A DNA stretch of 60,729 bases from an uncultured virus (IMG/VR IMGVR_UViG_3300010153_000001) (taxonomy: Duplodnaviria > Heunggongvirae > Uroviricota > Caudoviricetes), in the IMG/VR virus record IMGVR_UViG_3300010153_000001. One strand, written 5' to 3'. The translations under genes were made by a program, and so were the position numbers. The notes below the pieces were generated by a model, which saw nothing but the letters and a program-made list of their open reading frames with translations, was not told the DNA's origin and did not search any database. Below, piece by piece: positions 2 to 55,584 of this stretch (its first letter is position 1; each line of letters begins with the position of its first letter).

Positions 2-3000
2 GAAGAAGTTAATAAAACATTAAATCCACAATTAACGATTCCAAGTCTTACATCATTACCAATGAAAACTGGTACAGACTATGCAGACTATTGGATGGGT
101 AAAGGTAATCCACATAAAACTTTTTCATTCATGGCTAACAGGGAGGAGTTTACTCCAACTAATTGGGATAACATGAGTGCAGAATCTCAAAAAAAATGGA
201 TAGAAGAGAATTATCCTGATTTATCATCTACTATAGTTAAGCCTAATACAGATCCTCATGTTTTACAAACATTTATACCTAATAGTCCAGGAGTACCAAT
301 GTGGGATAGGAGTGTAGGTTCTTCTCATTTTAACCCAATGGTAAATGATTCCTATGAAGGTGGTTTAACATTAGGTCATAATAGAATATCATTTGATCCT
401 GCGTTTCCTAAGACAACAGTATCCTTGGAGAGACAGTCAGATTATGCCCAAAGATATAATGTAAAAAGTAGAAGTGGTAGTGGACTAGGAGCTTTTGATG
501 AATATATGAATACATTAAAAGATACAAAACCTCTCCAAACAGAGCTAGCCATAGAAAGGTCAAAAACTAATTTGGATAATACTACAAAATTTATTGAAGA
601 AATAGATAAAGGTGATGATGCTATTAGAAAATTATTACACTCAGAAGCTCAAGTAGAACATTGGACAGGTAGAACTTTTCATGAAGCAGTCAAAAACTTT
701 TATAATGGTAGGGATTTTAGACCTAGATTTACAGCAAGAGGTCCAGATATGCAAAGTATTGATATGAATAAAAGTAATAATTATAAAATTAATAATAACG
801 ATGTATCTTTTGATGCAACATATTTAAATTTTAATGATCTCACACATGATCAAATAATAGAGATAGTTAATTTACCTCAATTTAGAAATTACATAAAAGA
901 AAATAAGAAATATTTTAAATCAGAATATGATGAAAATATTATTAAACATAAAGAGCAAGTTGCAAAAAATGAAAAAGAAATATATGATATTGAAAATTGG
1001 AGCCCACTTAAAACAAATTTAGAGAGATATAAAAAAAATGCTCCTACAATATTATTAAATGAGTTAATAGACTATAGTACAAAAATAGGTAATACACACG
1101 TACACCTCCCATTATCATCAACAGTTGCAAAAACTCAAGGGTATGATGCAAATAAATGGGGAGCACCTAATCCTTTATTTCATCAGTTTAAATGGACAGG
1201 TCATGATTGGAATAGTTTTAATAATGATATTAATGACCTAAGAAAAATAATGAAGTTAGATTTAACTGAAGGTAATACTAAATCTATAGGACCTTTTAGT
1301 TTTAAAGTAATAAAGGGTGAACCATTATTGTCAACTCCATCCCAAAATCATCCTAATGAGATAATTACTATTTATAAAAATCCTGAGACTGGTGAAGTAA
1401 CTGAATTTCTTGGAACGGCTCAAGAACAAATGAAACAAATGGAAACTATTAGAAATGAGTTCTTAACATCTAAAGGGTATAATCCAGAAGTAGATTATAA
1501 AAATGTAGAAGGAGCATATAAACCAGAACATCAAACTATATTAAATAAATCTTCTGAAACACAACTTAAAAAAGATATTGAACAAATTTTTGGAAAGGGT
1601 TATCCATATGAAATTATTACAGATGGCCGTGGTAATCAATATATTAGATTAGATCATACGGGTACCAGGCTTCCAATTAAGAATATTCATGAATATAAAA
1701 GTGGTGGGGAATCTCTACCTAAAGCACAATGGTGGAATCCTAAAAATGCTTATAATGCATTTAAAACTATGAAGAATTCTTTCTCTCCAGGAATTAAACC
1801 TATGAATGTTAGAAAAGTTGGAGATTTTGGAAAACCACGTTCACAATATATTTTCCAAGCTCCACATGGAGATCGTGTACAATCATTGAAGAATTATTAT
1901 AATCCAGATTTTACAAAGTTTTCTGAACTTAGAACACATCCAAATGTAGGAGATTATACGTATGACAAAATGATTGATGAATTTACTTGGCTTAATGATG
2001 CTGCTAAAGTATCTGATAGAGTTATTAAACCATATAATCCTATATATGATGAAAGTGGAGATCTTATATCTTATGATATGCCTAATCTTAGAGACTATGT
2101 ATCTGCAGGATATGTAGTAAATAATAAAACTATTTTTGAATTAGATCCAATATTTGGAGAAGATCTTACTTCTGAAATTAGTAAACTTAATGCTAGTGGA
2201 TTTATTCATGGTGATCTTCATTCTGGTAATATCATGGTTAAACTAAATGCATCTAAAAATAAAGTTTTAGATTTTAAAATAATTGATCCATCAGGCTTCC
2301 CACAATTAACATCAGATATTAATTATAAGACAGCACCATTTTTACAGTCTAGACAAAAATCATGGAATATAGATAAAACTGATAATCCTTTATTTCAAAG
2401 AATGAATGTATTAAATAAAGCATCAGATATAGATAAAAAGAAATTAATAGAGTTAGAAAATAAAAAACCAATTGAGTTTGCTGATTATCAACAAGGAGGT
2501 TCATTACCAAAGGCACAGGATGGAAAAGAAGTTAAAGATTACTTTACAGCTTACTTAAATAGTGATTTATTTAAACGTAGAGCAATAGATTTACATGGTG
2601 AAGAAAATTGGGAAAAAGTAAGAGATGGTAAACTAAAAAGATTAGGAGATACAGAAGTTGATTTTAGTGGAGAAGAAGAGTGGGCAGATATATATGCTAC
2701 GGATTATAGTCAATCCAATCTACTGGCTGTAATAGGTTTAAAGGAGAAGTTTGATAGACTACAATCTAGATATATGAGACCTGGTTATGATGGTAATACA
2801 AATCCTATAGTTAAAGTAAACCCAGGACAAGCTGTAACAATGGCAGAAGATCATGAATTATCTTATAATCCATTTAATAGTATTCTTACTAATGAATATT
2901 CTCATGCATTAGGTGCTAACCATCCTAATACTAACGATACAGCAGCAATTGATTTTTTAATGACTGAGCGTGAAAGAGATATGACTAAAGAGAAAGGACG

Positions 3001-6000
3001 TGATTTTCTTTGGTCTGATAATGATTTACAAATACCTCATGATACAAAAAGCTATGAAATTAAATCTGACATAGATACAACAAGGTATGAGTTATGGAAA
3101 GCAGGTTTATATGATTTTGAAGAAGACTTTATGTTTGACCAATCACATATAGATTATATAAGAGAAAATCCAGATAAGTTTATAAAAGATAAACAATTAT
3201 TAGAGCAGTTTGATGATAATCAAGTTGTTGATATGATGAATACATTTACTGATAATTCATCAATGCCACTAGGCATGTCTAAATATGGTGGTCAACTACC
3301 AAAGGCTCAAACAGGAGTTTTATTTCCAGCAGATAATACAGGATCAGGATTTCCTGGAGGTAATTATAATTATTTTAATCCTCTAGATTTTAAGCAAACT
3401 TTTAATACTGATGTTCCAATAGCATGGGAGGATGTACCTCAAGATGTAAAAGATAAATGGGAAGGTGGTAGAGAATTTATGCAAATGTGGTATACTTCAC
3501 CTATGGGTATACAAATGATGAAGAATTCAGATCCTGAAAATTGGGAACAATTACAAGCAGCTAGATTAGAAAATATAAATAAGGATTATTCTGATATAAA
3601 CTTTTATTATAATAATATAAATGATCCTACTTTATGGGCATGGGCAGGTGGTAAACATGGAACACATAATATAGGTGTATATCCAAGGGCTTTCTATGCT
3701 GGACCTTCAGCAGCACATGAATTTACTCACATTTCTCATAATGAAAATACATGGAAGGATAGGTTCAAAGATACACATTGGGATACAGATGTCTTAGGAG
3801 AAATTCCAATAAATAAATCTTTCTTTAAATCTTATGGCCCTGAGAGTAATTGGTTTAATCCTATGCAGGAGGGATTAGCTGCTGGTAATTATCAAGGATT
3901 TGGAGACTTTGGTGGACACACATATAAATGGGATAAGGAAAAGGATGAGTTTTTATTAATACCTCAAACTGATATGAATCTTATGTATGCAAGTGATTTG
4001 AGTTATAATGATCATCGTGGACCACATTCAAGGTTAGGTAATATAGAACAATCAGATTCTGAATATTGGGGAGAAGCATCTGAACATATAGCAAGACTTA
4101 ATGCAATAAGATATAAAGCTTATCATACCAGAGATGAACATGGTTGGGATCCACTTACAATGCCACTTACTGCAGAATTATGGGAGAAGGTAAAGAAAGT
4201 AATTCCTTCAGTAGGTGGTGATGATGATTTTAATGCTATAGAACAATTAGGAAGTATAATAGGTGATAATGCTACTAGAAAACACTTAAATTTAATATCA
4301 GATGCTTCAGATCAAACAGGTAATGGAAATATGAAAACTGCTAAGTTTGGTGGGCAATTACCAAAAGCTCAACTTCAACTAATCAATGAAGGAGAAAAAT
4401 TAATAAATTATGGGGCTAATATAGTTAACAAGGGTAAACAAATAATTCCAAGACTTAAAAAGGCATATGACTTAAACAAGTATAATAAATCTACAGATAT
4501 ATTTGGTAATTCAGGTTATGATCTTGCCGCTGATCTTACACCAAGTATTCTAAAAAATAGATCATTAATAGATTTTAAATCATTAGAAAATACAACCGTT
4601 AATGAGGATAGATTACATCAGTTAATGGCTGACTATACTATTGATTCAGGACCTTTTAAATTTGGTACCTTTAAAGATATTGATGGAAATACTTTAGAAA
4701 ATTTGGTTCAACCTTTATCAGTTATCAAAGGTCCTAATGGAGAAGTAATAAATGCAACAGATAATAAATTTGCTTTAGAACTATCAGATTATATCAAGAA
4801 TAATAGATTAAACTGGAAGAACTCAACTGATGGAGAATTAAATAAATCTCTTTCATTAACAAGAATGTGGAATGAAAATGAAAGTATATCAGGAACTCAT
4901 GGAAATATAAATGATTTAAAGCTTTCGTTAGAATCAGGAGAGCCTATTCAATTAGGAGATATTACATCATGGTCAGCTGGTAAAGCTGGTTTAAATGCAT
5001 TTGGTCAACATAGGTATGTAATAAAAGATTTTGATCTTGAAACACCAGCATTATTAAATGAATATAATAAATATTTAAGTAAGAATCAACAGAATGTATG
5101 GAAGGAAAGAGAAATTCTTTTAGGGCCAGATACTAAATTTACAGTAAAGAATATAATTGACAATGCACCAAGAAAACCAGGTTGGGATTTATATACAAAC
5201 CTAAAAGAAAGTAATCCTAAATTATGGGAAGAGTTAAATTTAGATTTTGGTTCTACAAATAAAGCTGGAGGATATGGCTTTACAAATGACCCTACACTCA
5301 AAGTATGGCCAAATGGACAGACAAATCCAAACTATGATAAAATACAAACACTTATACAAAATGATCCTACATTTAAAGTAAAAGCTACACCAAATTATGG
5401 TACTGATATAGAGTTAGAATTACTTAAAAAATTATATGGGGGTTCTTTAAATTCTCTACCAAAAGCACAAATACAAGATGAGATTTTAAATGCGAATATA
5501 AAAGCAGATAAATGGAATAAAGAGTATGTGCAGTCAGAGAATTACATGAGTATGCTTAAACGTGCTAAAGAAAAAGAAAGTGTCATTAATTCAAGGATAG
5601 CTGAAGCAATGAATTTTGATCCTTATAAACATATTACATATGATGAAAATAATTATAGTTTAGGGCAATATTATAATAGTGGATCTCATTCATCAGATGG
5701 TAGTCAATACCCTATATCAACTTTCATGCATGGAGAAGCCATGTTAAACTATAATCCTACATTATTTCCAAATCATCCTGCTTATAATAATTCTGGTATA
5801 TCTACAGGGGGATGGCCAGCATTAGCAGGACATGAATTAATAGGGCATTATGGTGTAGATAAATTAAACAGAAAACAAAGAAAAGCATTAAATAGTTTAA
5901 TAAATTGGGAAGCATTGGATAACTTTGCAGGTGATTCTAATGAAGCATATGATCATGGTAAAGATCCATATGAGATGAGAGCAAACTTAGCTCAGTTAAG

Positions 6001-7564
6001 ATACCAATTAGATAACGCTGGTATTTATGATTCAAAGAAAGGATTAGCAGTAACAGCAGATGGTGAAGAAGGAGATAATCCATTCACAGAAGAACATCTT
6101 AAACAAATACTTGAGTTTGATGAAGACGGTACCTTTATAAGAATTAAACCAGAATTTAATAATGAGATCTTACAGTTTGTAGCACCACAAGATATTATAT
6201 GGATGATGAATAATATTGCACAAAATCAAGAGATTGGAGATGATTTACCTGAAGGTATAATAAGAGCTAAGATGGGGGCAGAGTTAACTAAGTTCCAGGA
6301 GAAGGGAGCAAATGATCCAAACTGGTTAGCACAAAGATTATATAATTCTGTTACTCCTATTGGTTATAATATAGATCATGCACTAAAAGAAATGTTTCAT
6401 GGTTCACGTCAACCATTTATGTGGGATGGTGTAGAAACATCATTTGATGATTTTCAAAATCATCCAAGATTTCAAGAACAAGCTATGTTTCCAGGACAAG
6501 GAGATTATATTAAAAATGCATCTCAAGATTTATGGGGAATGTATTTAGGTTTTGATCAAAAAAATAATACTGTCTCTAAGTCTAAATTTAAACCTACAAA
6601 AGGTGCTGAAGATGAAGATGCAATATATTATTCATTTAATGATGTAAGAGATATTTGGGCTGATATTATAGATGGTAAGATTACTGGTACTAATATTATA
6701 GATGACATTACAAAAGATAAATGGCAAATGCATGATTCAGGTGCAGGTGGTTTTAATTTAGCAAGTTATCAAATATCAAGAGGTGAAGATAGAGAAAAGG
6801 AACTTCCTTATTATTCTTATTATGATGAATATGATTTTGATATACCAACAGGTTTAGGATTTTCTATGCCTGGAGAAACACTTGTAGGAAATCCATTTGA
6901 AATATATGGAAGAATATATTATAATCCAGAAACTATGGAAATGATACCAGAGAATGAAGTAAAAGGTTGGTGGGTTGATTTTGAAAAATTAAAACAAGGT
7001 GTAGGTTATGCTGAAAGTCTTGATGGAGAACTAATGATTAATCCTGAATCAACAGCAACAGGAAGATATGGTCAGAGATTTAGTGAGATTAATAATGTTT
7101 ATGAGGGTACTAGAACACAGTTTGCAAATGATTTAGAAGCACAAGAAAAATATTTTGAAGATAGATATAGAGGTAGAATGGAAGGTATTCCAGGATTAAA
7201 AGAAAGTGCTATTGACTTATATCAAGAATATAATAAACAAATTGAAAGCTTCCCTTATTCTACAACAGAAGTTGCAGCATTAGTAAACTTCTTAGGTAGA
7301 CAAGGTACAAGAGAATATCTTGGATATGTATTAAGAGATGGTAATAGTTTAGAATCTGTATTCCCAGATAAATATGGACCAAATGCAGGGCAATCAAATA
7401 AAACACCTCAACAATATATTGATAAATTTAATGAGGGAATAACTAACATGAAGAAGCAACATGTAGAAGATGATCTAACAGGAAGGCTAATCAGAAAACT
7501 AGATAGAGGTGAGAAACTTACACCTGCAGGAACTAAACATCTAGAGTCTTTAGGAATGATATAA
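2..7564 (+). CDS. Giant modular (polyvalent) putative virion cargo protein, 5'-truncated; kinase-like, ADP-ribosyltransferase-like, 3x zincin-like and lysozyme-like modules separated by GGxLPKAQ linkers
   Basis: The frame of the 62..7564 ORF is open back to position 2, so the true start is probably upstream of the window. Motifs: HGDLHSGN..IIDPSG; NEYSH / HEFTH / HELIGH; R(SLTRMW)..TSWS..EREILL; YAES..STATGRYGQ. Six linker copies. Confidence 0.75.
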   Translation, partial: EEVNKTLNPQLTIPSLTSLPMKTGTDYADYWMGKGNPHKTFSFMANREEFTPTNWDNMSAESQKKWIEENYPDLSSTIVKPNTDPHVLQTFIPNSPGVPMWDRSVGSSHFNPMVNDSYEGGLTLGHNRISFDPAFPKTTVSLERQSDYAQRYNVKSRSGSGLGAFDEYMNTLKDTKPLQTELAIERSKTNLDNTTKFIEEIDKGDDAIRKLLHSEAQVEHWTGRTFHEAVKNFYNGRDFRPRFTARGPDMQSIDMNKSNNYKINNNDVSFDATYLNFNDLTHDQIIEIVNLPQFRNYIKENKKYFKSEYDENIIKHKEQVAKNEKEIYDIENWSPLKTNLERYKKNAPTILLNELIDYSTKIGNTHVHLPLSSTVAKTQGYDANKWGAPNPLFHQFKWTGHDWNSFNNDINDLRKIMKLDLTEGNTKSIGPFSFKVIKGEPLLSTPSQNHPNEIITIYKNPETGEVTEFLGTAQEQMKQMETIRNEFLTSKGYNPEVDYKNVEGAYKPEHQTILNKSSETQLKKDIEQIFGKGYPYEIITDGRGNQYIRLDHTGTRLPIKNIHEYKSGGESLPKAQWWNPKNAYNAFKTMKNSFSPGIKPMNVRKVGDFGKPRSQYIFQAPHGDRVQSLKNYYNPDFTKFSELRTHPNVGDYTYDKMIDEFTWLNDAAKVSDRVIKPYNPIYDESGDLISYDMPNLRDYVSAGYVVNNKTIFELDPIFGEDLTSEISKLNASGFIHGDLHSGNIMVKLNASKNKVLDFKIIDPSGFPQLTSDINYKTAPFLQSRQKSWNIDKTDNPLFQRMNVLNKASDIDKKKLIELENKKPIEFADYQQGGSLPKAQDGKEVKDYFTAYLNSDLFKRRAIDLHGEENWEKVRDGKLKRLGDTEVDFSGEEEWADIYATDYSQSNLLAVIGLKEKFDRLQSRYMRPGYDGNTNPIVKVNPGQAVTMAEDHELSYNPFNSILTNEYSHALGANHPNTNDTAAIDFLMTERERDMTKEKGRDFLWSDNDLQIPHDTKSYEIKSDIDTTRYELWKAGLYDFEEDFMFDQSHIDYIRENPDKFIKDKQLLEQFDDNQVVDMMNTFTDNSSMPLGMSKYGGQLPKAQTGVLFPADNTGSGFPGGNYNYFNPLDFKQTFNTDVPIAWEDVPQDVKDKWEGGREFMQMWYTSPMGIQMMKNSDPENWEQLQAARLENINKDYSDINFYYNNINDPTLWAWAGGKHGTHNIGVYPRAFYAGPSAAHEFTHISHNENTWKDRFKDTHWDTDVLGEIPINKSFFKSYGPESNWFNPMQEGLAAGNYQGFGDFGGHTYKWDKEKDEFLLIPQTDMNLMYASDLSYNDHRGPHSRLGNIEQSDSEYWGEASEHIARLNAIRYKAYHTRDEHGWDPLTMPLTAELWEKVKKVIPSVGGDDDFNAIEQLGSIIGDNATRKHLNLISDASDQTGNGNMKTAKFGGQLPKAQLQLINEGEKLINYGANIVNKGKQIIPRLKKAYDLNKYNKSTDIFGNSGYDLAADLTPSILKNRSLIDFKSLENTTVNEDRLHQLMADYTIDSGPFKFGTFKDIDGNTLENLVQPLSVIKGPNGEVINATDNKFALELSDYIKNNRLNWKNSTDGELNKSLSLTRMWNENESISGTHGNINDLKLSLESGEPIQLGDITSWSAGKAGLNAFGQHRYVIKDFDLETPALLNEYNKYLSKNQQNVWKEREILLGPDTKFTVKNIIDNAPRKPGWDLYTNLKESNPKLWEELNLDFGSTNKAGGYGFTNDPTLKVWPNGQTNPNYDKIQTLIQNDPTFKVKATPNYGTDIELELLKKLYGGSLNSLPKAQIQDEILNANIKADKWNKEYVQSENYMSMLKRAKEKESVINSRIAEAMNFDPYKHITYDENNYSLGQYYNSGSHSSDGSQYPISTFMHGEAMLNYNPTLFPNHPAYNNSGISTGGWPALAGHELIGHYGVDKLNRKQRKALNSLINWEALDNFAGDSNEAYDHGKDPYEMRANLAQLRYQLDNAGIYDSKKGLAVTADGEEGDNPFTEEHLKQILEFDEDGTFIRIKPEFNNEILQFVAPQDIIWMMNNIAQNQEIGDDLPEGIIRAKMGAELTKFQEKGANDPNWLAQRLYNSVTPIGYNIDHALKEMFHGSRQPFMWDGVETSFDDFQNHPRFQEQAMFPGQGDYIKNASQDLWGMYLGFDQKNNTVSKSKFKPTKGAEDEDAIYYSFNDVRDIWADIIDGKITGTNIIDDITKDKWQMHDSGAGGFNLASYQISRGEDREKELPYYSYYDEYDFDIPTGLGFSMPGETLVGNPFEIYGRIYYNPETMEMIPENEVKGWWVDFEKLKQGVGYAESLDGELMINPESTATGRYGQRFSEINNVYEGTRTQFANDLEAQEKYFEDRYRGRMEGIPGLKESAIDLYQEYNKQIESFPYSTTEVAALVNFLGRQGTREYLGYVLRDGNSLESVFPDKYGPNAGQSNKTPQQYIDKFNEGITNMKKQHVEDDLTGRLIRKLDRGEKLTPAGTKHLESLGMI

Positions 7565-7595
7565 GCATGAATATAATTAGACTATCTCCTAATAA

Positions 7596-7629
7596 TTTAG
7601 TATATTATAAGTGTATACTGCTAAAAGTA
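7596..7629 (+). promoter_or_regulatory. Putative phage (late) promoter motif TTTAGTATATTATA...TACTGCTAAAAGTA
   Basis: Intergenic, just upstream of ORF 7644. A near-identical motif lies at 44604-44634 and the core recurs at 48352-48365. Confidence 0.5.
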
Positions 7630-7643
7630 AATTAATTAAGTAA

Positions 7644-10600
7644 ATGGCAAAGAAATTTCCAAATATTGAAACTTTAAAAGTTTATCAGCAAGGTGGTGAT
7701 AATGAACCTGTTAGGTCATGTCCTGCTGCTACAACGGATTCAGATTTAAATTTAGATAATAGAGAACGTTCTATAACTAGATCTAATTATACTAAAGCAG
7801 ATTCAAAAAATAAATGTGGCAATTGTATATTCTTTGACATATCTAGTAGAATGAAGAAGTGTATGGATACTAAGACTGATAATACAGGTTATTGTTGGGA
7901 TCAAGAGTTTGTATGCAGTAAAGATAATGTTTGTGACATGTGGGAAGAAGGTGGTCCTATTAAATCTGATGAATCATCTTATATACAAGATAAAAATTAT
8001 AATACAGAATATGAAGAAAATAAAGCTGAGGTTGAACAAATACAAGCAGCAAACCAATCACCAATAGCTAATCAACCACCTCAACAACAAATGCCACCAC
8101 AAGGAATACAACAGATGATGGCACCACAAGGGCCTCCTCCACAAGGGCCTCCTCCACAAGCTATGGCACCTCCACAACAAGAGGTACAACCTACATATAA
8201 ATATGGAGGATCTTTAAGAAAAGCTCAACAACAAGAAGAAACACAAATTACTTTTAAAGACTGGGTATTACAAGATCCAGTAAATAGACAAGGACCTAAT
8301 GCTAAAAACGAATACATTGAATTTATAAAAAGTACTACTGTAGATCCAACATTTGGAACAGATCCATCTACACAATCATCTTCAGTTAATGAAGAATCAT
8401 CAAGTACTTCAACTGTTCTTGATAATAATACTGATATATATGATGCTAATAATCCAGATATAAAAGAAAGAGGTAACACACTAAAGGATGTATTTCCATG
8501 GATGACTAATAAGGGTATAAAAAGACGTGGTAAATATGGTCAAAATAGAGATGAAAACTTTATACCATGGGAGGCAGATCCTACAACAGATATTGGAGGA
8601 TTAGGGAGTATAGCTAATTGGTTTAAAAGTGTTGTACATGATGAAAGAAATCTTGATGTTGATCCTAATAAAATAACTAATAGAGAATTTAGAAGATATA
8701 AAAAACATTTAAGAAAACAGAATCCTAACCTATCTAGAAAAGAAATTAGAGAAATGGCTAATGAGGCTTTCCCTTCTCATGGTAATAATAGATGGGGTAA
8801 AGAACATTATCAACAATTTAAAGTAACAAACCCATTTAGTGAAACTAGATTCTTTGATCCAGAAAATCCTGATGAGTTACTTACTCATGGAGAAAAACAA
8901 GCACAACTGTATAATGAATTTTCTCAAAATAGAGTAGCAATGTATCCTGAATTATATCAGGTATCTTCAATGGATAATGATGGTAATATTACTTATACAG
9001 GAGATAAACTTTTAGGTGACATGGAAGAAACAGAGTATATGCCTAATTCAGTTCATATTGTACATACAGATGATAATAAAGGTATAAAAGGATCTTGGAT
9101 ATATAGTGGTACTAGTGATGATGGTCAAAAAGAATATGAGTTTATACCTTTTGATTTAGAAAATCCTACTAGAAAAACAACAACAAATAGTACTCAGAAA
9201 AATGCTAATGATTGTATAACACTTAAACAAAAATGTCTTGGTGCTGAACCTGCTGGAACATGGGATGCTGATAGTTGTACTTGTACCTATAATAAAGAAA
9301 GTGAACAGGAAGAACTAAATAAGAATGTAAAGAAGGATGCAAATATTGATGATATAGTATTTCCAGAAAATGAAGATTACAAAACAGGAGGAGCTGCTCC
9401 AACTTTTGCATTTATGAGAGATGGTGGTGATCTTAGAAGATTTCAAAATACAAGTGAACATAATTGGACTGATCAACAAATACTAGATTGGATTAATCTA
9501 CAAAATAAATTAGTACGTCCAAGAATGTCTTGGAAGGATGATCAAGGTTATTCCCAATATAGTGGAAGTAAGTTTAATCCACTTACAGCGCAAGAAGAAA
9601 TGATTTGGGATCCTAGAAATATAGATTTAACACAAAGATCTACATGGCCTAGTCTTAAGTATTCTGAATTTGATCCTGCTTGGTCAGGAATAAATAACTT
9701 AGAATATCCGTGGTTACCTGATTTTTCAACAGAAGAAGGAAGATCAGCAGCTTATAATTTACATAGAACAGCAGCTAAAACATATCCAGATGATTTATTA
9801 ATGCCAGATCTGTATTGGGGAACTAATCCATCAGGTGATAGAGAAGCTTATCCTTATAATATTGAATCAAGATCAGAAAAGGATAAAAGAACTGGAAAAG
9901 TAATAAGTGCTCAATTAACAGAGTTCAATGAAAAAATAAAAAATGTAAAGTCTAAAACAGAACTCAAGAAACTAATGAGTAATACAGACTTAAATCAACA
10001 AAGTATAATGTATATCTTAAATCAAGCAAATCAAAATAATGATCTTGATATTAGTGATGAAGATTATATATCTATAATGGATGAAATTACTACATTTCAA
10101 ACGGATCCAGCTAATAAATCTTTATATGAACATACTGCTTATGGTCCAGGTGAGAAAGTTGATGCAATTGTTTCCCGTGATGAATGGGGTAACACTGTAT
10201 ATAATACTGACTATCAGTATAATCCACATACGTATGAAGATTTTACTATGGCTAATCCTAATATAGGTCAAGAAACTACAACTAAAAAAACTCAGGTATG
10301 GATAGATCCTGATGATGGTAAGTGGTATTATAGACCTACATCTGATGAAGCTTGGTATAATACTCCTAATTTTTTAAATACACCTTGTCCAAATGATGAT
10401 TGTTATAGTACATATATAGATATTGAAAAAGATGTAGTAGGATCAACTATAGATGATGCTTTTAGAGATCAAACTATTTCAGAAAATAAAAAAGGAGAAA
10501 AACTTACACAACCTACACAAGTTTGGGATGAGCATGCAAACAATGGAGAAGGTGGTTGGATTTCTATTGATGGAACACTTACTAATGCAGACAACCAAGG

Positions 10601-13600
10601 GGACAGGGCAGAAAGACTACACATTGGTCAGATACTAAAGGATAAAGGTATTATTACGGATGATATGGAGATGGCAGATGTTGAAACAATAATAGATAAT
10701 TTTGCAGGTGGAGTTAATAGTAGAATTTGGGATTATAAAACTTCAGCTTTTGATAACATCGTACCCGCGTCTGGTATTAATGAGGATGGAACTACAAGAC
10801 TTAGTGGTATAAATCCTAAATACAAAGATTTTATACAAACATTTGGTAACTCAACATTTCAAGAATATAGTAATACAAATCCAAATCAACCAATACTATC
10901 TAAACAAGATGCTTTACATGCTATGACATTACGTAGCCATTATAATAATACTGAAAAGTTACCTTCTGAAATATATGGTAATAAGACAGGTACTTATAAT
11001 CCTCATATAGAAGGTATGAGTTATTTTGATGAAGAATCAGGAGAGAATGTTTGGGTAGATAATCCAGAATATAATAGTAAATTTGCTAAAGGTGTTAGAG
11101 GTGATTTTAAAGGTGGCTTTACTGATAACTATGAATCAGCTTTTGATTATTTTACTGATGCACCAGTAAGTACAACACTGGGTCATATAATGTCAAATAA
11201 GGATGTACAATATGCACTGAATAATCCTATGCATACTTTTGGACCACTTGCAATGGAAGCAGGTCCTCTACTACGTGGTGCAGGTGCTCTTGCAAATTAT
11301 ACTAGAATAGCACCTTTAATGAATACAGGAGTCTTTGGTACAAATATTACTCCATGGAATGCAATTAATACTGGATTCGGAATAGATATGGCTACTCATA
11401 TACCAGATAATCTTGAAAATGAAAATTATGGAATGGCAATTCTTAATACTTTGGGGGGTGTAAGTAGTGGTGCAAATATACTTAATAAACTTAACACAAA
11501 TCAGGCTTTGATGCCAACATCATATAATACGATGAAAAATTGGAATCCTAACCTTCCAGCTTTAAATAGTCAAGGAGCACAAAAATATACTGATTATGCT
11601 AATTATATAAATGAATTACCTGCTATTTCTTTAAGAAATAACCCATCACAATTTAGTGCTATTAAAAATTTCAGCAAGAACTTTAATCCTAATATAAAAT
11701 TAACTGCACCTAAATTAAATTATTCTGGACCTACTATTACGGTTCCACCTGGAGGTTTTATGGAAGGAGGAAGTTTACCAAAAGCACAAATTCAATTAGC
11801 TGATGATATATATTATGGTGGTTTAAAACTAGCTAATAATGCAACTAAATCTGTTAATCTAATTGATAAAACAAATCCTTGGACAGTTTTAGGTACGGGT
11901 AGTCTATACCGTAATTCTGGTATACCTAGCTTAGTAAACATTAATAATAGAGATGATTTATTAAAACAATATCAATTAAGGAATGATCAATACCGTACTG
12001 TTAATATAAATGATAAGGTATTGAACAATACATTACTAAGAGATAATGCATTTAAATATGGTTTTAATGCAGATAAGGCAGATGAACTTGCAGCATTTAT
12101 GGGAACAACACCAACATTAGGGGATGGTAGACGTGCAGGATATGAAAGTTTATTAAGATTAGATAAAGATATATTATATACTGGAGATTATCCACATATT
12201 ACAAATAGTAGATATACCACTGGAAATCCTCAAAATGCATGGACAGTTAAATCAAATATATGGGAAGATGATATTTCATTATTGGATGATCAAACACTTT
12301 TTGATAGAATAAGTTTATTGGATAACGTTAGAACACATAGTCCAAAGGATGGAATATTTAATGTAGGAGATTTAGAAAGTTGGGGAAATATTAATCAAAT
12401 ATTTGATAGGAGTACTGGACTTCGGATACCTCATGGTTCATTACTTAATACTCAAACAACAAATGTACCAGAGTTAATGCAAACTAATTTGATATATGGT
12501 GACGCATTTAAACCAGTAAGAAAACCTATTAGTATTTTTAGAGGTGATGATTTAAATCAATCACTTAAACTTAGTGGTAATAGGTTTGAAACATTTGCAA
12601 AAGGAGGTCAGTTACCAAGAGCACAGATGTCTAATGGTGCAGAGGATGTAGCAGCTTTATATCAAGTAAATCCAGAACAATTTGATTATGATACTAATAT
12701 GCCTAAAGAAGGAGCTATTAGTGCATATGGAGATGTATGGCAAGGAGGTCAATGGGTAGATGCTACTCAAGATCAACATGGTTTTAATACTCCTGATTCA
12801 GATCAGTTTGGTGTTGTAGGTAGTGCGTTCTCAGATGAGACGGGTATTATAAACCGTAATACAAATTTTGATCCTAACAATAAAGACAAGTCAAATCCTT
12901 TCTTAGGAAATGAAATGAATCAATTGATGAAATCAGCTGCTGCTGATACATATGATGTTAGAAGAAGAGATATAAATAAAGATACATGGAATCCTAAAGA
13001 AGGTTCTATAAATAAATCATATGGGGATATATGGAATGATGAAACTGGTTGGACTGATAATCAATTTACACCTCAATTTGATGTAACAGATGATTTTGCA
13101 TTTGAAGGAGATGATAATACTTTAAGTAGAGGTCAACTTAGAGATGTACGTAAATCTAATAGAAGACAAGAGAAAGCTGAGAAAAAAGGATTTAGTTCTT
13201 GGGATGAAATGCAGGAAGATAAAACAGAAAAGAGAGCAATAAGAAAAGCAAAAAGAAAAGCCAAGAGAGATAGATGGGGTGATACATTTGGACAAAGAAT
13301 GGGTAATAAGTTTAGATACATGATGGATAGCAAAGCTATGCAAAGATTTGGTAATTATAGTCAAGCAGCAGTTAAAGGAGCTGGACTTATTAATGATGGG
13401 TTTGATATATATAATGAAAATAAAGCAGCTGATGAAATTTATGCAGGTAGAACTGCTGGTTCAATGTATGGTGTAACTCCTACTAGTGCACTATCAAAAG
13501 GAGAAGAAGATGAGTTAACTGGAATTTTTCAAACAAGTGATAAGGTAATAGCTAGACAAGATGGTAGAGCTCAATCTGGAGCAGAGTTACCAAGACATCA

Positions 13601-14342
13601 ATTTCTAGGAGGAGTGTTTGGTAATACAGTAAGAGATTCTGATAAATATGATTGGTTTGGTGGAGGTATAGGTACATCTGCAGATATATCTATGGATGAT
13701 TTATCTAATTCAAATATAAATCAAGAGAGTATAATCCCTTCTCTTAATATAGATGCTGGAATGAGCTTAATGACTCCAAAAGCTGCAGCTGTAGGTAGTG
13801 CAGATTATAGAATGAGTACTGATGGAAATGTATTAGATGTTAGTGGAGGTATTCAGTTTGATCCTACTAGACAATATGAAGGACACTGGCCTTCTGATAA
13901 TATAAGTATACCATGGTTAGGTTATAATAAATGGGGATTAAATGGTCCGTATATAATTCCTACTGCAGGTTATCATCAAGGAAGACAAATATATGATCAA
14001 GGAGATGGTAGAAATTATTGGAAAGCTAATGCAGGTATTATGATGCAACAAGACCCATGGTCAGGAACATGTGGAGCAGGAGGTGCAGGATGGGGTTGTG
14101 ATATAAATGCAGATTATGGAACTCAGTATAGTGATGATCCAAGTTTATCATATGATGCAAGTTTATTTTATGGACCTCTTAGTGTAGGTTATAAAAGTAA
14201 TAATGCAGGAGATTATGCAACAGTAGGTTTAAATTGGGGATTTAAAAAAGGAGGAGAGAAAGAAAAAGAAAAAACAATAAGTATTGACACAGATATGTAT
14301 TATGAATTATTAGCTGCAGGAGCAGATATAGAAATTATATAA
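7644..14342 (+). CDS. Giant modular putative virion cargo protein (2232 aa) with N-terminal Cys-rich domain, Pro/Gln low-complexity tract, GGxL(P/R)(K/R)AQ linkers and a C-terminal beta-barrel-like module
   Basis: Long ORF in the giant-gene cluster. Linkers KYGGSLRKAQ, RDGGDLRRFQ, MEGGSLPKAQ, AKGGQLPRAQ, QSGAELPRHQ; CGNC..GYC..CDMW. Confidence 0.65.
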   Translation: MAKKFPNIETLKVYQQGGDNEPVRSCPAATTDSDLNLDNRERSITRSNYTKADSKNKCGNCIFFDISSRMKKCMDTKTDNTGYCWDQEFVCSKDNVCDMWEEGGPIKSDESSYIQDKNYNTEYEENKAEVEQIQAANQSPIANQPPQQQMPPQGIQQMMAPQGPPPQGPPPQAMAPPQQEVQPTYKYGGSLRKAQQQEETQITFKDWVLQDPVNRQGPNAKNEYIEFIKSTTVDPTFGTDPSTQSSSVNEESSSTSTVLDNNTDIYDANNPDIKERGNTLKDVFPWMTNKGIKRRGKYGQNRDENFIPWEADPTTDIGGLGSIANWFKSVVHDERNLDVDPNKITNREFRRYKKHLRKQNPNLSRKEIREMANEAFPSHGNNRWGKEHYQQFKVTNPFSETRFFDPENPDELLTHGEKQAQLYNEFSQNRVAMYPELYQVSSMDNDGNITYTGDKLLGDMEETEYMPNSVHIVHTDDNKGIKGSWIYSGTSDDGQKEYEFIPFDLENPTRKTTTNSTQKNANDCITLKQKCLGAEPAGTWDADSCTCTYNKESEQEELNKNVKKDANIDDIVFPENEDYKTGGAAPTFAFMRDGGDLRRFQNTSEHNWTDQQILDWINLQNKLVRPRMSWKDDQGYSQYSGSKFNPLTAQEEMIWDPRNIDLTQRSTWPSLKYSEFDPAWSGINNLEYPWLPDFSTEEGRSAAYNLHRTAAKTYPDDLLMPDLYWGTNPSGDREAYPYNIESRSEKDKRTGKVISAQLTEFNEKIKNVKSKTELKKLMSNTDLNQQSIMYILNQANQNNDLDISDEDYISIMDEITTFQTDPANKSLYEHTAYGPGEKVDAIVSRDEWGNTVYNTDYQYNPHTYEDFTMANPNIGQETTTKKTQVWIDPDDGKWYYRPTSDEAWYNTPNFLNTPCPNDDCYSTYIDIEKDVVGSTIDDAFRDQTISENKKGEKLTQPTQVWDEHANNGEGGWISIDGTLTNADNQGDRAERLHIGQILKDKGIITDDMEMADVETIIDNFAGGVNSRIWDYKTSAFDNIVPASGINEDGTTRLSGINPKYKDFIQTFGNSTFQEYSNTNPNQPILSKQDALHAMTLRSHYNNTEKLPSEIYGNKTGTYNPHIEGMSYFDEESGENVWVDNPEYNSKFAKGVRGDFKGGFTDNYESAFDYFTDAPVSTTLGHIMSNKDVQYALNNPMHTFGPLAMEAGPLLRGAGALANYTRIAPLMNTGVFGTNITPWNAINTGFGIDMATHIPDNLENENYGMAILNTLGGVSSGANILNKLNTNQALMPTSYNTMKNWNPNLPALNSQGAQKYTDYANYINELPAISLRNNPSQFSAIKNFSKNFNPNIKLTAPKLNYSGPTITVPPGGFMEGGSLPKAQIQLADDIYYGGLKLANNATKSVNLIDKTNPWTVLGTGSLYRNSGIPSLVNINNRDDLLKQYQLRNDQYRTVNINDKVLNNTLLRDNAFKYGFNADKADELAAFMGTTPTLGDGRRAGYESLLRLDKDILYTGDYPHITNSRYTTGNPQNAWTVKSNIWEDDISLLDDQTLFDRISLLDNVRTHSPKDGIFNVGDLESWGNINQIFDRSTGLRIPHGSLLNTQTTNVPELMQTNLIYGDAFKPVRKPISIFRGDDLNQSLKLSGNRFETFAKGGQLPRAQMSNGAEDVAALYQVNPEQFDYDTNMPKEGAISAYGDVWQGGQWVDATQDQHGFNTPDSDQFGVVGSAFSDETGIINRNTNFDPNNKDKSNPFLGNEMNQLMKSAAADTYDVRRRDINKDTWNPKEGSINKSYGDIWNDETGWTDNQFTPQFDVTDDFAFEGDDNTLSRGQLRDVRKSNRRQEKAEKKGFSSWDEMQEDKTEKRAIRKAKRKAKRDRWGDTFGQRMGNKFRYMMDSKAMQRFGNYSQAAVKGAGLINDGFDIYNENKAADEIYAGRTAGSMYGVTPTSALSKGEEDELTGIFQTSDKVIARQDGRAQSGAELPRHQFLGGVFGNTVRDSDKYDWFGGGIGTSADISMDDLSNSNINQESIIPSLNIDAGMSLMTPKAAAVGSADYRMSTDGNVLDVSGGIQFDPTRQYEGHWPSDNISIPWLGYNKWGLNGPYIIPTAGYHQGRQIYDQGDGRNYWKANAGIMMQQDPWSGTCGAGGAGWGCDINADYGTQYSDDPSLSYDASLFYGPLSVGYKSNNAGDYATVGLNWGFKKGGEKEKEKTISIDTDMYYELLAAGADIEII
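8124..8160 (+). repeat. 15-bp tandem direct repeat (CCACAAGGGCCTCCT x2.5) encoding the PQGPP low-complexity tract
   Basis: Read directly: ccacaagggcctcct ccacaagggcctcct ccacaag. Confidence 0.85.
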
Positions 14343-14344
14343 TT

Positions 14345-17300
14345 ATGGGAAAAGTAAAAGTAAAAATAGGTAATTTACCTAACGGATATAAATTTAAAAA
14401 TGGTAAGATTGTAAAAGTAATGTCTACAGGTGGTGCACCTTATAGTAATTCTTTAGGTCCTATACCAAGAACCTTTGCTAATCTAGAAGCAGAGAAAGGT
14501 GAAACAGCATTAACTGATCTAACTAATGATGGTAATTTTGAATTATATAATATTGGTGGTAAAAGACACCCAGATGGAGGAACAGCATTAAGTTTACCTC
14601 CTCAATCATTTATCTTTTCAGATACTGCAAAGATGAAACTTAATAAAGAACAACTTAAAAGATTTGATATTAATTCTACAAAGAAGATGTCTCCTGCTAA
14701 AGTATCAAAAAAGTTTCCTTTAAATAAGTACTACTCTGTTTTAAATGGAGAATTTGTAGATGATATTGCAACTAGAAGTGCTGAGATGATGTTAGAGAAA
14801 AATAAAATGAAACTATCTGAATTAGCATTTGTATCAGAAAGTAAAAAGAAATTTGAAGATGGTGTTCCATTAGCAGCTTATCCATACTTAATGTCTCAAG
14901 ATATTGATCCAATGGAATTTGTTCAAAAGGTTAATCAACTTAATGAAGAACAAGCTCAAATGCAAATGATTGATCAATTACCACCAGAACAACAACAAGA
15001 AATATTAGCATTACAAAACTTTACAGGTGGACAAGGAGGACCCCCACCACAGGGAGGTATGCCTCCAATGGGGCCACCTATGGCAGGAGGAATGCCACCT
15101 ATGCCTCCAGGAGGAGGAGGAGGAATGCCACCACAAGGTATGATGCCACCTCAACAAATGATGGCTAAATATGGAGGAGGCTTACCTAGAGCTCAGACTC
15201 AACTTACTCTAGAGCAAATTGCAGCAATAGAGGCACTTAACCATTCTAGAATGACTAATAGAGAAAATACTTATAATAAAAATATAAATTGGCAGGAAGA
15301 GTTTGCAAAACAAGGATATTGGAGACCTCCTGTTGCACCTGGATTTGATGGAACAACACCTAATCTTAATGTTACACCAGTTTCAGAATATACAGCTTCA
15401 GGTCCTTGGGATAAAACATTCACTGGTCAGAATGAATTATCAATAGAAAAATATGGTGGAGGTTTACGTAGAGCACAATTCCAAACTCCTGAGAATATAC
15501 AACCTCAAATGCACTTGCCTTCTCAAAGATTAGCAGAAGTAGCAGATATGGTTCCTTTTGATCCTTCAGAATTTAAGAGTGATTATCCAAAGATAAGTTA
15601 TGGAAAAGATATAAATCAAGGAGTTAATCAGGGATCTTTAGTTAAGTTAGCAGAAAACATATTAAATAAAACAAAAGGAACTCCAGATGGAATGTATGAT
15701 AGAAGATACAAAGAAGATCCTCAAGGAGATTATGCACAAATAGGAGGAGCATTAAATAGATTTATATATGGAGGTCAAGATTATTTAGATAGATATAGAG
15801 ATTATGATGATCTACAGAAATTTCAAAAGGATGGAGAATTACTATCTGCATATGCAACAAGAATGGGTCAAACATGGGACCCTCAATATAAAGATGCTAC
15901 ATATGATAAATCAACAAAGATGTGGGTATACAGTGATGGCACTCCTTCTGTATCTAATGCAGATATGAGAAAAAATGCATTGGATCCTAATTTTGTACCA
16001 CCAGATGAATATAGAGTTGATGGAGGACACAATGCAAATGGAGTAATAATTGATGAGAATGCAGAAGAAGGACAAGGAGGTAATTTTGTAAATGGTGTAT
16101 GGGTACCTGGACCTAATGATAATTCTAATAATGGCTCTAACAATAATGGCTCTAACAATAATGCAGTGGTGAGTAGTTATCCAGGTCAAAAAGGACATAA
16201 TAGTCTAGTAGAATTATATGGCTCTGATGATTGGGACTTAATTAATGACTATACTTATCAGACATATAAAAAGATGTATGATGGTGGAAAGTATGATATG
16301 GGTCCTGAAATGTCAGCAGAAGAATTTGAGGCTACACTATTAAGAGATCAAAAGTTTAAAGCTCTTATGCATGATCCAACAGCACTTGAAAATATAACTA
16401 TCACATTAGGTAATGGTAAGACAGTTAGTGGTGCAGATATTATTCAACATGGTGCATGGGATCACCCAACTAATCATGGATTCACAAGTAATAATGATAT
16501 GTATAGAGCAGTATATGAACAACTTGCTACAGCATATCCAGAGGCTGAGTTACCTGCTTTACCACCAAATGATGCCAATGGAAATAAATTATTAACAACA
16601 CAAGTAAGACAGCAACAAGCTACATTTAGTAGTTTTGGTGGTCTACAAAAACATGCTGATAAATTAGCAGCTGATGGGGATCCTTCATTTCAAAACTTAT
16701 TAAAGAATGTAAATTTAGATGCAACTGGACGTGCTGGAGGAGGTAGTGGTCTTATGGGAGAAGCTTCATGGTCAAAAATAGATGGAAACTATGGAGATAC
16801 ATTTAATAGTCAAAGAATTGCATTTAAAAATACACCAGGAAAAGATAAAGAAAATCCTGTAGAAACATGTTATACAGATCAAAATGGTACAGTGTTTCCA
16901 GATAAAGCAAAAGCTAAATTAGATTGTGAAATGAATGGTGGTACATATGATACGATGGTTTGTGAATGTATAGAAAAAACTACAACAAAGATTCCACAAC
17001 TTCCACCTAAAGAATTCTGGAAACAAGATAAAATAAAAATAGGTGCATTATCTGGTCTTGATCTTAATAAGTATTATCCAAGTAGACAAGCTTTCACAGG
17101 TAACTTTATGGATCCTGCATATAAAGATCCTACTAGAGAAATTGCTGCAATTGGTGAGCAAGCTCAAATTGCTGGTGATATGGCAGCAATGATGAGTAGT
17201 GGTCCAGCATTAGCATCAGTACTTTCTAAAATACAAGGAACAGCAGGATCACAAATTGCTAATGCATTAGATAAAGTTCAGAATGATAACATTAGTATTT

Positions 17301-17914
17301 ATAATAATGCTGAACAATATAATGCAGGTGTTCAAACTAATACAGATGTACTCAATCAGGATGCAGCTAAAGTTTATATGGATGCAGTTAATTTAGTAGA
17401 TCAAAATTATGATAATGCTAAGAATAAGTTAAGGGTAGAATTAGCTGATGCACATGCTAATGCTTGGACTAATAGAGCTAATACTTATAACTTAAATACA
17501 TTAACTCCTAACTATAACGTTGATCCATCAGATGGAGGAAGTATTAATATTACTAATCCTAAATCATTTTTTGCTCAGGATGCTGGTGATCCAGCTTCAT
17601 TAATGCAACAAAGAATAGCATTAGAAAATGAATACATTGCTAATAGATGTGGTAATTTAAGTACAGAAGCAGAAAAAGTTGCTTGTATGAATAATGCAAA
17701 ATCTGTAGTTGATGGCATGCTAAAGAATAGTAGTGGGCCTGCTAATACAAAGAATATTCATGGTTATCCAGGTAATAGTAATGATATTACAGTAAATGAG
17801 AATTTACCAGATGGTCAGGATAATGGAACAGAAGAAGGTAACACAAAGAAAAGTAAATATGGAAGTGAATTGAGAAATGCATTACGTATGAGAAGAGGAG
17901 GACAATGGTGGTAA
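14345..17914 (+). CDS. Putative virion cargo/structural protein (1189 aa) of crAss-like type, with Pro/Gly/Met-rich tract and KYGGGL(P/R)RAQ linkers
   Basis: N-terminal NLEAEKGE..GKRHPDGG..FIFSD resembles, from recollection, a motif common in Bacteroidota-phage virion proteins. Lies just upstream of the vRNAP cluster. Confidence 0.55.
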   Translation: MGKVKVKIGNLPNGYKFKNGKIVKVMSTGGAPYSNSLGPIPRTFANLEAEKGETALTDLTNDGNFELYNIGGKRHPDGGTALSLPPQSFIFSDTAKMKLNKEQLKRFDINSTKKMSPAKVSKKFPLNKYYSVLNGEFVDDIATRSAEMMLEKNKMKLSELAFVSESKKKFEDGVPLAAYPYLMSQDIDPMEFVQKVNQLNEEQAQMQMIDQLPPEQQQEILALQNFTGGQGGPPPQGGMPPMGPPMAGGMPPMPPGGGGGMPPQGMMPPQQMMAKYGGGLPRAQTQLTLEQIAAIEALNHSRMTNRENTYNKNINWQEEFAKQGYWRPPVAPGFDGTTPNLNVTPVSEYTASGPWDKTFTGQNELSIEKYGGGLRRAQFQTPENIQPQMHLPSQRLAEVADMVPFDPSEFKSDYPKISYGKDINQGVNQGSLVKLAENILNKTKGTPDGMYDRRYKEDPQGDYAQIGGALNRFIYGGQDYLDRYRDYDDLQKFQKDGELLSAYATRMGQTWDPQYKDATYDKSTKMWVYSDGTPSVSNADMRKNALDPNFVPPDEYRVDGGHNANGVIIDENAEEGQGGNFVNGVWVPGPNDNSNNGSNNNGSNNNAVVSSYPGQKGHNSLVELYGSDDWDLINDYTYQTYKKMYDGGKYDMGPEMSAEEFEATLLRDQKFKALMHDPTALENITITLGNGKTVSGADIIQHGAWDHPTNHGFTSNNDMYRAVYEQLATAYPEAELPALPPNDANGNKLLTTQVRQQQATFSSFGGLQKHADKLAADGDPSFQNLLKNVNLDATGRAGGGSGLMGEASWSKIDGNYGDTFNSQRIAFKNTPGKDKENPVETCYTDQNGTVFPDKAKAKLDCEMNGGTYDTMVCECIEKTTTKIPQLPPKEFWKQDKIKIGALSGLDLNKYYPSRQAFTGNFMDPAYKDPTREIAAIGEQAQIAGDMAAMMSSGPALASVLSKIQGTAGSQIANALDKVQNDNISIYNNAEQYNAGVQTNTDVLNQDAAKVYMDAVNLVDQNYDNAKNKLRVELADAHANAWTNRANTYNLNTLTPNYNVDPSDGGSINITNPKSFFAQDAGDPASLMQQRIALENEYIANRCGNLSTEAEKVACMNNAKSVVDGMLKNSSGPANTKNIHGYPGNSNDITVNENLPDGQDNGTEEGNTKKSKYGSELRNALRMRRGGQWW

Positions 17915-42150: not shown

Positions 42151-42495
42151 ATGGAAAAAACAAAGAAAGATAAACAGCCTTATAAACCATTACCTGATTA
42201 TCTATCTATCGGGCCTTCAGATATTCATGGTGCTGGTATTATTGCTAATGAAGATATACCTAAAGATATTGAAATGGGAATCAGCCATGTGTATGATCCA
42301 GAATTTCAACATGATTATATTAGAACACCATTAGGAGGATTTGTAAATCATTCTGATACACCTAATTGTGAATTAGTAGATAAGGATGATGATTACCATT
42401 ATAAAACTATTAAGACTATTAAGAAGATACAAGCAGGTCAAGAGCTTACTTTAAAGTATTCTTTATATCCTTTATGTGATTATCTTAATGAATAG
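42151..42495 (+). CDS. SET-domain protein (putative protein-lysine methyltransferase)
   Basis: SDIHGAGIIANEDI (motif I), GFVNHSDTPNC (NHS motif), IQAGQELTLKY (ELxxxY). Confidence 0.85.
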   Translation: MEKTKKDKQPYKPLPDYLSIGPSDIHGAGIIANEDIPKDIEMGISHVYDPEFQHDYIRTPLGGFVNHSDTPNCELVDKDDDYHYKTIKTIKKIQAGQELTLKYSLYPLCDYLNE

Positions 42496-55377: not shown

Positions 55378-55584
55378 ATGGCAAAATATAAAATAATTAC
55401 AGAAGCTAGTGAGACAAGACATAGAGGTGTTTTATATAATTGGGAAAAACTTCCAAGAATGAAAGATTGTCAAGAAAAACTTGAACAAGCTTATAATGCT
55501 GGTTTAACTAGTTTTGTTGAGAAGATAGAAGATAAACCTAAATCTAAACCTAAAAAATCTAAAAAAGATGAAGAAAAATTATAG
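55378..55584 (+). CDS. Hypothetical protein with Lys-rich tail
   Basis: 68-aa ORF in operon order. Confidence 0.5.
   Translation: MAKYKIITEASETRHRGVLYNWEKLPRMKDCQEKLEQAYNAGLTSFVEKIEDKPKSKPKKSKKDEEKL

Follow-up and report, generated by a model that had tools for sequence, protein, structure and literature searches.

The stretch of DNA analyzed here (the window) comprises 60,729 nt of the uncultured virus IMGVR_UViG_3300010153_000001 (Caudoviricetes) and carries six giant plus-strand open reading frames (ORFs). A short peptide motif built around a Gly-Gly pair recurs through the first three, ORF1–3, where a first-pass annotation had described it as a linker that divides the chains into effector cassettes. 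We find a real and conserved joint which, by a modest balance of probability, is most likely a maturation cut site in virion cargo polyproteins. The giants are arranged as follows:

2..7564, plus strand: ORF1, putative cargo polyprotein with an array of cassettes; its 5' end lies outside the window, the true start being about 1 kb upstream
7644..14342, plus strand: ORF2, putative cargo polyprotein; full motifs at 8199, 9417, 11760, 12597 and 13572, bare cores at about 7683, 9378 and 14241
14345..17914, plus strand: ORF3, counterpart of crAss001 gp45 and phi4:1 gp040; full motifs at 15167, 15449 and 15737, a degenerate copy at 17855, a bare core at about 17888
17974..21468, plus strand: ORF4, at the gp46 position, assigned by position only, without a sequence match; no motif
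21493..36549, plus strand: ORF5, virion RNA polymerase with DFDID at residue 3884, matching phi14:2 gp66 and crAss001 gp50; no motif
36551..42148, plus strand: ORF6, homologue of gp49/gp65 with a zincin-type EExxH at residue 237; no motif

By its gene content, the phage is crAss-like (Crassvirales). A virion RNA polymerase with DFDxD and flanking giants, a trait of this order, is present in the window, with ORF5 matching phi14:2 gp66 at E 7e-10 and ORF6 matching gp49 at E 4e-23 (both small-database E-values), and the family B DNA polymerase (PolB) of the window has its best match in phi14:2. Fourteen IMG/VR loci match the ORF3 N-terminus, and ten records (36–123 kb) were examined whole. The portal and capsid genes lie outside the window; the crAss-type portal, major capsid protein and terminase were found through close relatives, with matches to crAss001 gp20 at E 1e-20 to 1e-25 in 8 records, to gp32 in 4 records, and PHROG matches in relative G002. 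ORF1–3 are located downstream of a muzzle-type gene and upstream of the polymerase giants. At the equivalent locus crAss001 carries its cargo genes gp45 and gp46, while the genes of phi14:2 and phi4:1 are annotated as virion proteins detected by tandem mass spectrometry (MS/MS). Because of this position and these MS/MS-annotated counterparts, ORF1–3 are probably packaged in the virion. The ORF1 frame is open from nt 2, interrupted by the window start, and holds at least seven segments; in close relative G011, ORF1 begins about 330 residues earlier, with one extra motif there (an ungapped comparison matched 2314 of 2858 positions). Searches of the whole giants against Pfam and PHROGs gave nothing above cut-off, and tblastn returned no matches to ORF3 or ORF4 among 50,697 phage records. 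ORF1–3 are not joined when translated with genetic code 15 or 4.

The copies of the motif in ORF1, and the gene that carries it outside the giants, are the following:

1694..1729, plus strand: motif copy 1; new N-terminus predicted at nt 1697 from the inferred register
2486..2518, plus strand: motif copy 2
3281..3310, plus strand: motif copy 3
4343..4372, plus strand: motif copy 4
5432..5470, plus strand: motif copy 5
6269..6298, plus strand: motif copy 6, degenerate (GA for GG)
55568..56152, plus strand: small basic protein (net +16); one full motif at the N-terminus, two bare cores at the C-terminus

All 15 copies originally reported in ORF1–3 are present, 14 of them recovered by a six-frame pattern scan (6 in ORF1, 5 in ORF2, 3 in ORF3) and the fifteenth (KYGSELRNA, 17855) by direct reading. 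Under a strict pattern, ORF1–3 contain 13 copies, whereas 2000 shuffles gave 0.0145 on average and never more than 1. The copy at the N-terminus of the small basic ORF had been missed, and short cores without the tail are also found near the termini of ORF2 and ORF3; ORF4–6 lack the core motif, just as the first-pass annotation had stated. Its claim that conservation is at the protein level was likewise borne out: identical codons make up 0.457 of 490 same-residue pairs, compared with 0.521 expected from codon usage. Observed and expected values are 0.483 and 0.503 in G002 and 0.418 and 0.519 in G003, with G009 an exception (0.781 and 0.552, 5 copies). On this codon comparison, selection acts on the peptide.

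The form of the motif has to be revised. Relatives share the core [FYMA]-[KRQEA]-x-G-G, which a tail x-L-P-K-A-Q may follow, and among the best 150 ORF3 homologues the LPKAQ tail accompanies only 40 of 273 scored cores. The idea of a special 11-residue tag is not supported: the shared unit is the 5-residue core, and the tail is clade-specific. The 11-residue form looks like a clade-specific tandem doublet, its tail a second, degenerate copy of the core, because in G005 the tail-like half alone precedes a cassette.

Across eleven records, 30 cargo proteins contain 95 cores compared with 16.0 after shuffling. The corresponding counts are 11 and 15.0 in 31 downstream giants, 28 and 7.8 in 535 small ORFs, and 45 and 31.8 in 335 other proteins, a class that included the G010 cargo genes and one stand-alone cassette gene of G005. 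The proposed confinement to cargo nearly holds, with 49 strict copies in the 30 cargo proteins, but one copy occurs in each of the three other classes. The small late ORFs of G001–G009 and window 55568–56152 are short and strongly basic (net +9 to +24) with K-K-G-G-type cores; a role as DNA-condensing core proteins that are subject to this signal too is possible. A profile of the ORF3 domain retrieved 1,760 clusters at 50% identity, and the best 150 homologues contain 281 cores compared with 55 after shuffling, 127 of the 150 having xxGG within their first 40 residues.

On the same sequence pattern, the element is not special to this phage: crAss001 gp45 and the T5 and lambda tape measures carry the GG core. 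It punctuates gp45 (at residues 207, 261, 330, 371, 425, 560 and 826) and virion proteins of phi14:2 and phi4:1 verified by mass spectrometry. In phi14:2 g070 a core stands ahead of the PF25725 domain and ahead of each of two zincins, and in phi4:1, gp041 and gp040 have 2 and 6 copies compared with 0.14 and 0.52 after shuffling, while gp039 has none. Among 10 phages, gp45 orthologues contain 51 x[AK]xGG compared with 17.6 shuffled, some of them glycine-rich membrane segments, whereas gp46 orthologues contain 1 compared with 3.7. No published description of the motif was found in listings of open-licence PMC papers and bioRxiv main texts, and the accessible parts of 10.1101/2022.12.01.518664 and PMC10713586 contain nothing on it.

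The cassettes of ORF1 recognizable from their sequences are:

1730..2485, plus strand: kinase-like cassette (HGDLH..N, D-P); Pfam APH at E 4e-4, below cut-off
2505..3249, plus strand: zincin-like cassette shared with G005, where it lies in another gene; 90.3% nucleotide identity, starting inside motif codons
3311..4342, plus strand: zincin-like cassette (HEFTH), by motif only
4373..5431, plus strand: cassette with an ADP-ribosyltransferase-like R..S..ExE pattern, read by eye
5471..6268, plus strand: zincin-like cassette (HELIGH); PHROG 24249, the family of phi14:2 g070, at E 3e-5

The segments of ORF1 are domain-sized, as had been proposed (264–431 aa), but those of ORF3 include two of 94 and 96 aa, and a segment in ORF2 measures about 780 aa. 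The further suggestion that each segment is a separate enzyme stands for one kinase-like and three zincin-like cassettes (HEFTH, HELIGH and a degenerate NEYSH), but not for the remainder, which lack a library match. ADP-ribosyltransferase-like and lysozyme-like cassettes are candidates from motifs seen by eye, and the fold predicted for cassette 4334–5488 from 10 sequences has a predicted local distance difference test score (pLDDT) of 45. Named LPD, MuF or PBECR domains gave no Pfam match in the whole ORFs and 18 segments, a search that divergent members could escape. ORF1 nonetheless shows the trait of polyvalent proteins, 2–15 unrelated effector-type domains per polypeptide, mosaic among relatives.

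Comparison of close relatives confirmed that cassette content varies, and that the motif marks module boundaries at which cassettes are swapped. In cargo-protein alignments of at least 40% identity over at least 80 residues, 65 of 174 internal ends fall within 25 residues of a motif, compared with 12% at random; with motifs masked the count is 72 of 185, although masking can itself end an alignment. Cassette 2505–3249 is 90.3% identical in DNA to a G005 gene elsewhere, while the ORF3 domain of G005 is only 56% identical in protein; the shared identity begins inside motif codons and stops about 30 nt before the next motif. Cassette 4373–5431 is flanked on both sides by GG motifs in 9 of 9 homologues found. 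On these comparisons, the motif is a seam at which effector cassettes are acquired, dropped and traded. The ORF1 orthologue of G005 (110077–115446) lies about 40 kb away from ORF2–3, and its place is taken by a 579-aa gene with the shared zincin cassette (L007 4815–6554).

The register of a putative cut can be read from proteins of other phages. The T5 tape measure pb2 has a cut placed after R1127 (PMC10038345, in the text available), where the sequence reads P-R/A-E-G-G, the slash marking the cut. In crAss001, the accessible text of PMC10172136 describes gp45 as resolved in two pieces, 214–245 in the tail and 425–552 on the portal, 420 Å apart, and proposes a 179-residue tether between them. 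Residue 425 is the A of N/A-F-G-G, the same register as in T5 pb2, so that by sequence the gp45 model starts exactly at the predicted new N-terminus; the tail-barrel piece falls between the cores at 207 and 261. Lambda gpH has cores at 733, 778 and 842, the first close to the expected cut of a protein whose processing releases a piece of about 14 kDa, with site and enzyme stated in 2025 to be unknown (available text of PMC12617516). At the T5/lambda-type site, as judged by sequence register, A/K-x-G-G thus lies on the prime side. Because the registers of T5 pb2 and the gp45 model agree, the cut probably falls two residues before GG; the earlier suggestion of a cut after Q is unsupported, since the tail is clade-specific and both registers place the cut elsewhere.

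Natural variants of gp45 bear on whether the chain stays intact. Among the best 120 of 1,551 gp45 homologues, 61 lack 265–375 and 3 more lack 260–329, in each case motif to motif; these 120 are 98–100% identical in the portal domain and are hence not independent. PhiCrAssBcn1, which has a named host, is among the deletion variants, as confirmed in its record. The 61 variants leave 67–69 residues between the resolved pieces, which reach at most 262 Å, compared with the 420 Å of the uncut model. One uncut chain cannot therefore fill both tail and portal sites in these variants. In phage cr112_1 (L086 2451–5500), insertion of an endonuclease gene has divided the gp45 orthologue in two, the latter half beginning 22 residues ahead of the motif at the start of the portal domain; there the chain need not be continuous. 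Peak lists from matrix-assisted laser desorption/ionization (MALDI) for 13 crAss001 gel bands, published with PMC6235969 (supplementary file 8, parts 70–74), were matched to 31 proteins, with contaminant masses taken into account. Proteins gp20, 22, 23, 25, 26, 32, 36, 44, 47, 49 and 50 clearly stand out, the 93-kDa portal being detected with 10 peaks compared with 1.3, while gp45 was not above shuffle in any of the 13 bands (band 10 has only 7 peaks). Its absence lends weak support to cleavage.

Two features near the N-terminus of ORF3 are of note:

14420..14434, plus strand: bare core M-S-T-G-G ahead of the portal-binding-type domain; 11 of 11 close orthologues keep G29-G30 unchanged
14444..14869, plus strand: domain like the gp45 portal-bound domain (PF25725 type) with invariant E50, E53 and H75; candidate processing enzyme

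Residues E50, E53 and H75 are invariant in 117 sequences of the domain. Its model has a pLDDT of 89.6, while the motif itself is below 50, and the core before the domain is probably exposed in that model. Kinship with gp45 is suggested by ESM features, which match a PF25725 cluster at 0.93, by a profile match to phi4:1 gp040 (E 4e-9), and by BFVD, where 10 of the top 11 matches carry a name or organism and most of these belong to cargo proteins of crAss-like phages (best E 4e-6). Structural comparison with the solved gp45 domain (7qog_M) is weak: Foldseek E 1.2 at rank 4, and VIA Z 5.3 with a root-mean-square deviation of 4.7 over 97 aligned residues, a score tied with helical hairpins; among the VIA matches listed, the gp45 domain is the only one that covers the beta part from residue 16 of the ORF3 model. 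ORF3 18–192 has no Pfam match at E 10, and thus none to PF25725 above cut-off; hhalign of the ORF3 alignment against the single gp45 domain gave a probability of 0.2%; a sequence search of solved structures with the ORF3 domain returned low-complexity or chance matches only; and an ESM Atlas search with the gp45 beta part, PF25725 excluded, gave no usable match. The order of the ExExGE and G-x-H-x-x-G elements in ORF3 and phi4:1 gp040 (14444–14869, L071 32260–32640) is opposite to that in gp45 and phi14:2 g070; the portal-binding domain may be permuted. Given the lack of a Pfam match and the permuted element order, ORF3 is not filed as a PF25725 member, and its sequence suggests that it works like a Crassvirales cargo protein C1.

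Considering the invariant E50, E53 and H75, the preceding core, and a gp45 counterpart present in 12 copies on the portal, the ORF3 domain is by analogy a plausible leading candidate for the protease. A second candidate is the zincin of ORF6 (37259–37273, residue 237), which reads EExxH in crAss001 gp49 and all 9 orthologues examined, but HExxH in phi14:2 gp65; a processing role has been suggested for gp65 (10.1101/2020.03.07.982082, in the text available). The ORF1 zincin cassettes were rejected as a general protease: HExxH is missing from the ORF1 orthologues of G002, G003, G005 and G008 (4 of 10).

These observations suggest a model in which the site would be read mainly on its prime side, the chain being cut between a hydrophobic or small residue and [A/K/Q/R]-x-G-G, with each released module beginning x-x-G-G. 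Cutting would most likely occur in the assembling particle, and a 250-kDa chain would be harder to hold in the head and to pass through portal and tail than pieces of 10–50 kDa. A domain fenced by two sites would be packaged with the chain and then freed, so that the site could double as an exchange seam. Of the processing and loading functions first proposed for the motif, processing is the best reading of what is indirect evidence, and a pure capsid-loading tag is weakened because the RNA polymerase giants and gp46-type proteins are packaged in crAss001, phi14:2 and phi4:1 without the motif.

Several points weigh against a maturation cut. The T5 site is disputed, an older study having put the cut at V1148, and R1127 is also a trypsin site (accessible text of PMC11937520). 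A gp45 model starting at 425 may mark only where order begins, and neither 'cleav' nor 'protease' occurs in the main text of the gp45 paper (PMC10172136). In lambda gpH, the same register at the first core would release about 12.6 kDa, compared with the reported 14 kDa. Profiles do not score homology between the gp45-type or ORF3-type domain and the gpH and pb2 blocks behind the motif, a weak test in that the tape-measure blocks collected were near-identical lambda copies only; the likeness of the GE-containing blocks is a pattern seen by eye. Different gp45 copies filling the tail and portal sites would also explain the short linkers. In the MALDI lists the motif-less gp46 is undetected too, and the smallest, 15-kDa band holds no gp45 fragment. 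For 61–63% of homology breakpoints, the distance to a motif exceeds 25 residues. Finally, no cut product of a crAss-like cargo protein was seen, and no protease for the motif was identified.

The strongest competitor is an uncut docking or packaging handle, which would bind the portal, scaffold or gp45-type domain and recruit chains and small basic proteins to the head. Cores at extreme N- and C-termini, where a cut removes few residues, fit this proposal, as do the 18 of the best 150 ORF3 homologues with a core within 40 aa of the C-terminus, the excess of cores in small basic late proteins and the core modeled inside the ordered, portal-bound gp45 domain. We consider it unlikely: polymerase subunits and gp46-type proteins are packaged without the motif, one handle per chain would suffice where ORF1 has at least seven copies, and the T5 register is left unexplained, although docking and cutting are compatible. 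Slightly more doubtful is an uncut hinge, or an unfolding and refolding joint for passage through the tail, that also serves as an evolutionary cassette seam. The flexibility of GG, the clustering of breakpoints at the motif and the published model, in which gp45 is extruded as a single, partly unfolded chain (PMC10172136, in the text available), all speak for such a joint. A hinge, however, has no need for a fixed [FYMA]-[KRQEA] register across phage orders, the sequences flanking the motif show no shortage of order-promoting residues (0.248 and 0.281 compared with 0.258), and the 69-residue variants are incompatible with a single chain spanning 420 Å.

That the motif is a cut site with the cut after GG or after the tail Q would suit this clade, in which conservation is highest at GG and at the tail Q. 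It is improbable given that the gp45 model includes A425-F426 ahead of GG, that the tail is rare among scored cores and absent from gp45 and g070, and that no papain-like or C39 protease was found among 47 G002 proteins (PHROGs) or 25 window proteins. A DNA-level recombination scar without protein function would account for exchange and deletion end-points inside motif codons and for the G009 copies, which are more codon-alike than expected; with codon identity at or below expectation in 3 of 4 genomes and the peptide kept across distant phages with different DNA, we regard this as very improbable.

Beyond the maturation cut itself, one may speculate, tentatively and with the expectation that so sweeping a proposal would more probably fail than hold, that tailed phages share an unrecognized maturation code, cut-before-[A/K]-x-G-G, in T5 and lambda tape measures and Crassvirales cargo. 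The twelve portal-bound C1 domains (Glu, Glu, His) would then be a protease that frees itself and cuts the cargo into separately ejected effectors, the head and tail pieces of crAss001 gp45 would be separate products instead of one chain stretched over 420 Å, and any fenced domain could be loaded and delivered.

Other genes of the window include a stand-alone SET-domain gene at 42151–42495 (Pfam E 5e-10); stand-alone copies also occur in G003, G005 and G006, and six cargo-type proteins of other phages that bear the motif begin with a related SET domain. A 1172-aa protein (49669–53187) has a signal-peptide-like start, a MAM domain, a run of 15 Cys-rich repeats and, at the C-terminus, a sorting domain for type IX secretion; relatives carry shorter versions, and a phage-encoded host-surface protein is possible. 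A B12-type ribonucleotide reductase and the family B DNA polymerase are encoded at 42612–44471 and 58508–60418 on the minus strand; in most relatives, the reductase and the end of the polymerase cluster meet head-on. Relative G002 has GroEL-like (6871–8505) and GroES-like (19265–19540) genes.

Glycine-directed maturation of virion polyproteins occurs in adenovirus and African swine fever virus, and T4 uses a capsid-targeting sequence; the adenovirus protease, pS273R of African swine fever virus and ubiquitin-like proteases cut after GG. The likeness to the present case would lie in a short signal that is repeated in core or internal proteins and recognized by a virion protease; those systems, however, cut after glycines or Glu with known proteases, whereas here the evidence points before the glycines. 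The closest relatives are the Crassvirales cargo C1 proteins (crAss001 gp45; phi14:2 g069/g070; phi4:1 gp040/gp041), which share the muzzle-to-polymerase locus, what is probably the same kind of domain as in ORF3, and the GG core fencing modules. Compared with the single gp45 gene of 842 residues, the window has three genes and about 6,300 residues, many enzyme-like cassettes, a doublet motif with the LPKAQ tail, and an ExExGE element that precedes the H element in ORF3, the reverse of gp45. The gp45 paper describes neither motif nor cleavage in its accessible text (PMC10172136). T5 pb2, processed to pb2* and pb2C (PMC10038345; disputed in PMC11937520), has A-x-G-G right after the reported cut, and lambda gpH, processed to gpH* and gpHC (PMC12617516), has its core at 733 near the expected cut, as far as the available texts allow; theirs is one cut near the C-terminus of a siphophage tail ruler, in contrast to many sites in the capsid cargo of a short-tailed phage.

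Polyvalent proteins, as described in the accessible text of PMC5512222, are likewise large, mosaic, virion-packaged chains with zincin-like peptidases, kinases and ADP-ribosyltransferase-like domains, for which autoproteolytic domain release has been proposed; that text contains no 'crAss' as a word start and no 'glycine', and names no recurring boundary motif. In the present case, by contrast, 4 of 10 orthologues lack the ORF1 zincins, which therefore do not qualify as the general enzyme. Virion polyprotein cleavage is known in kind, and these proteins fit the polyvalent theme and the C1 cargo position; the present analysis adds the register at A425, the natural variants with 69-residue linkers, the comparison with MALDI data and the interpretation of the 11-residue form as a doublet.

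Should the motif prove to be a cut site, the model of ejection published for the commonest order of human-gut phages would need revision, with the head and tail forms of gp45 being two products, and an exact site would be provided for lambda gpH cleavage along with a sequence argument in the T5 dispute. The motif would also explain the quick shuffling of injected effectors in crAss-like phages, and it would offer a rule for dividing thousands of unannotated giant phage proteins, including those of the 1,760 clusters with the ORF3 domain, into their constituent domains.

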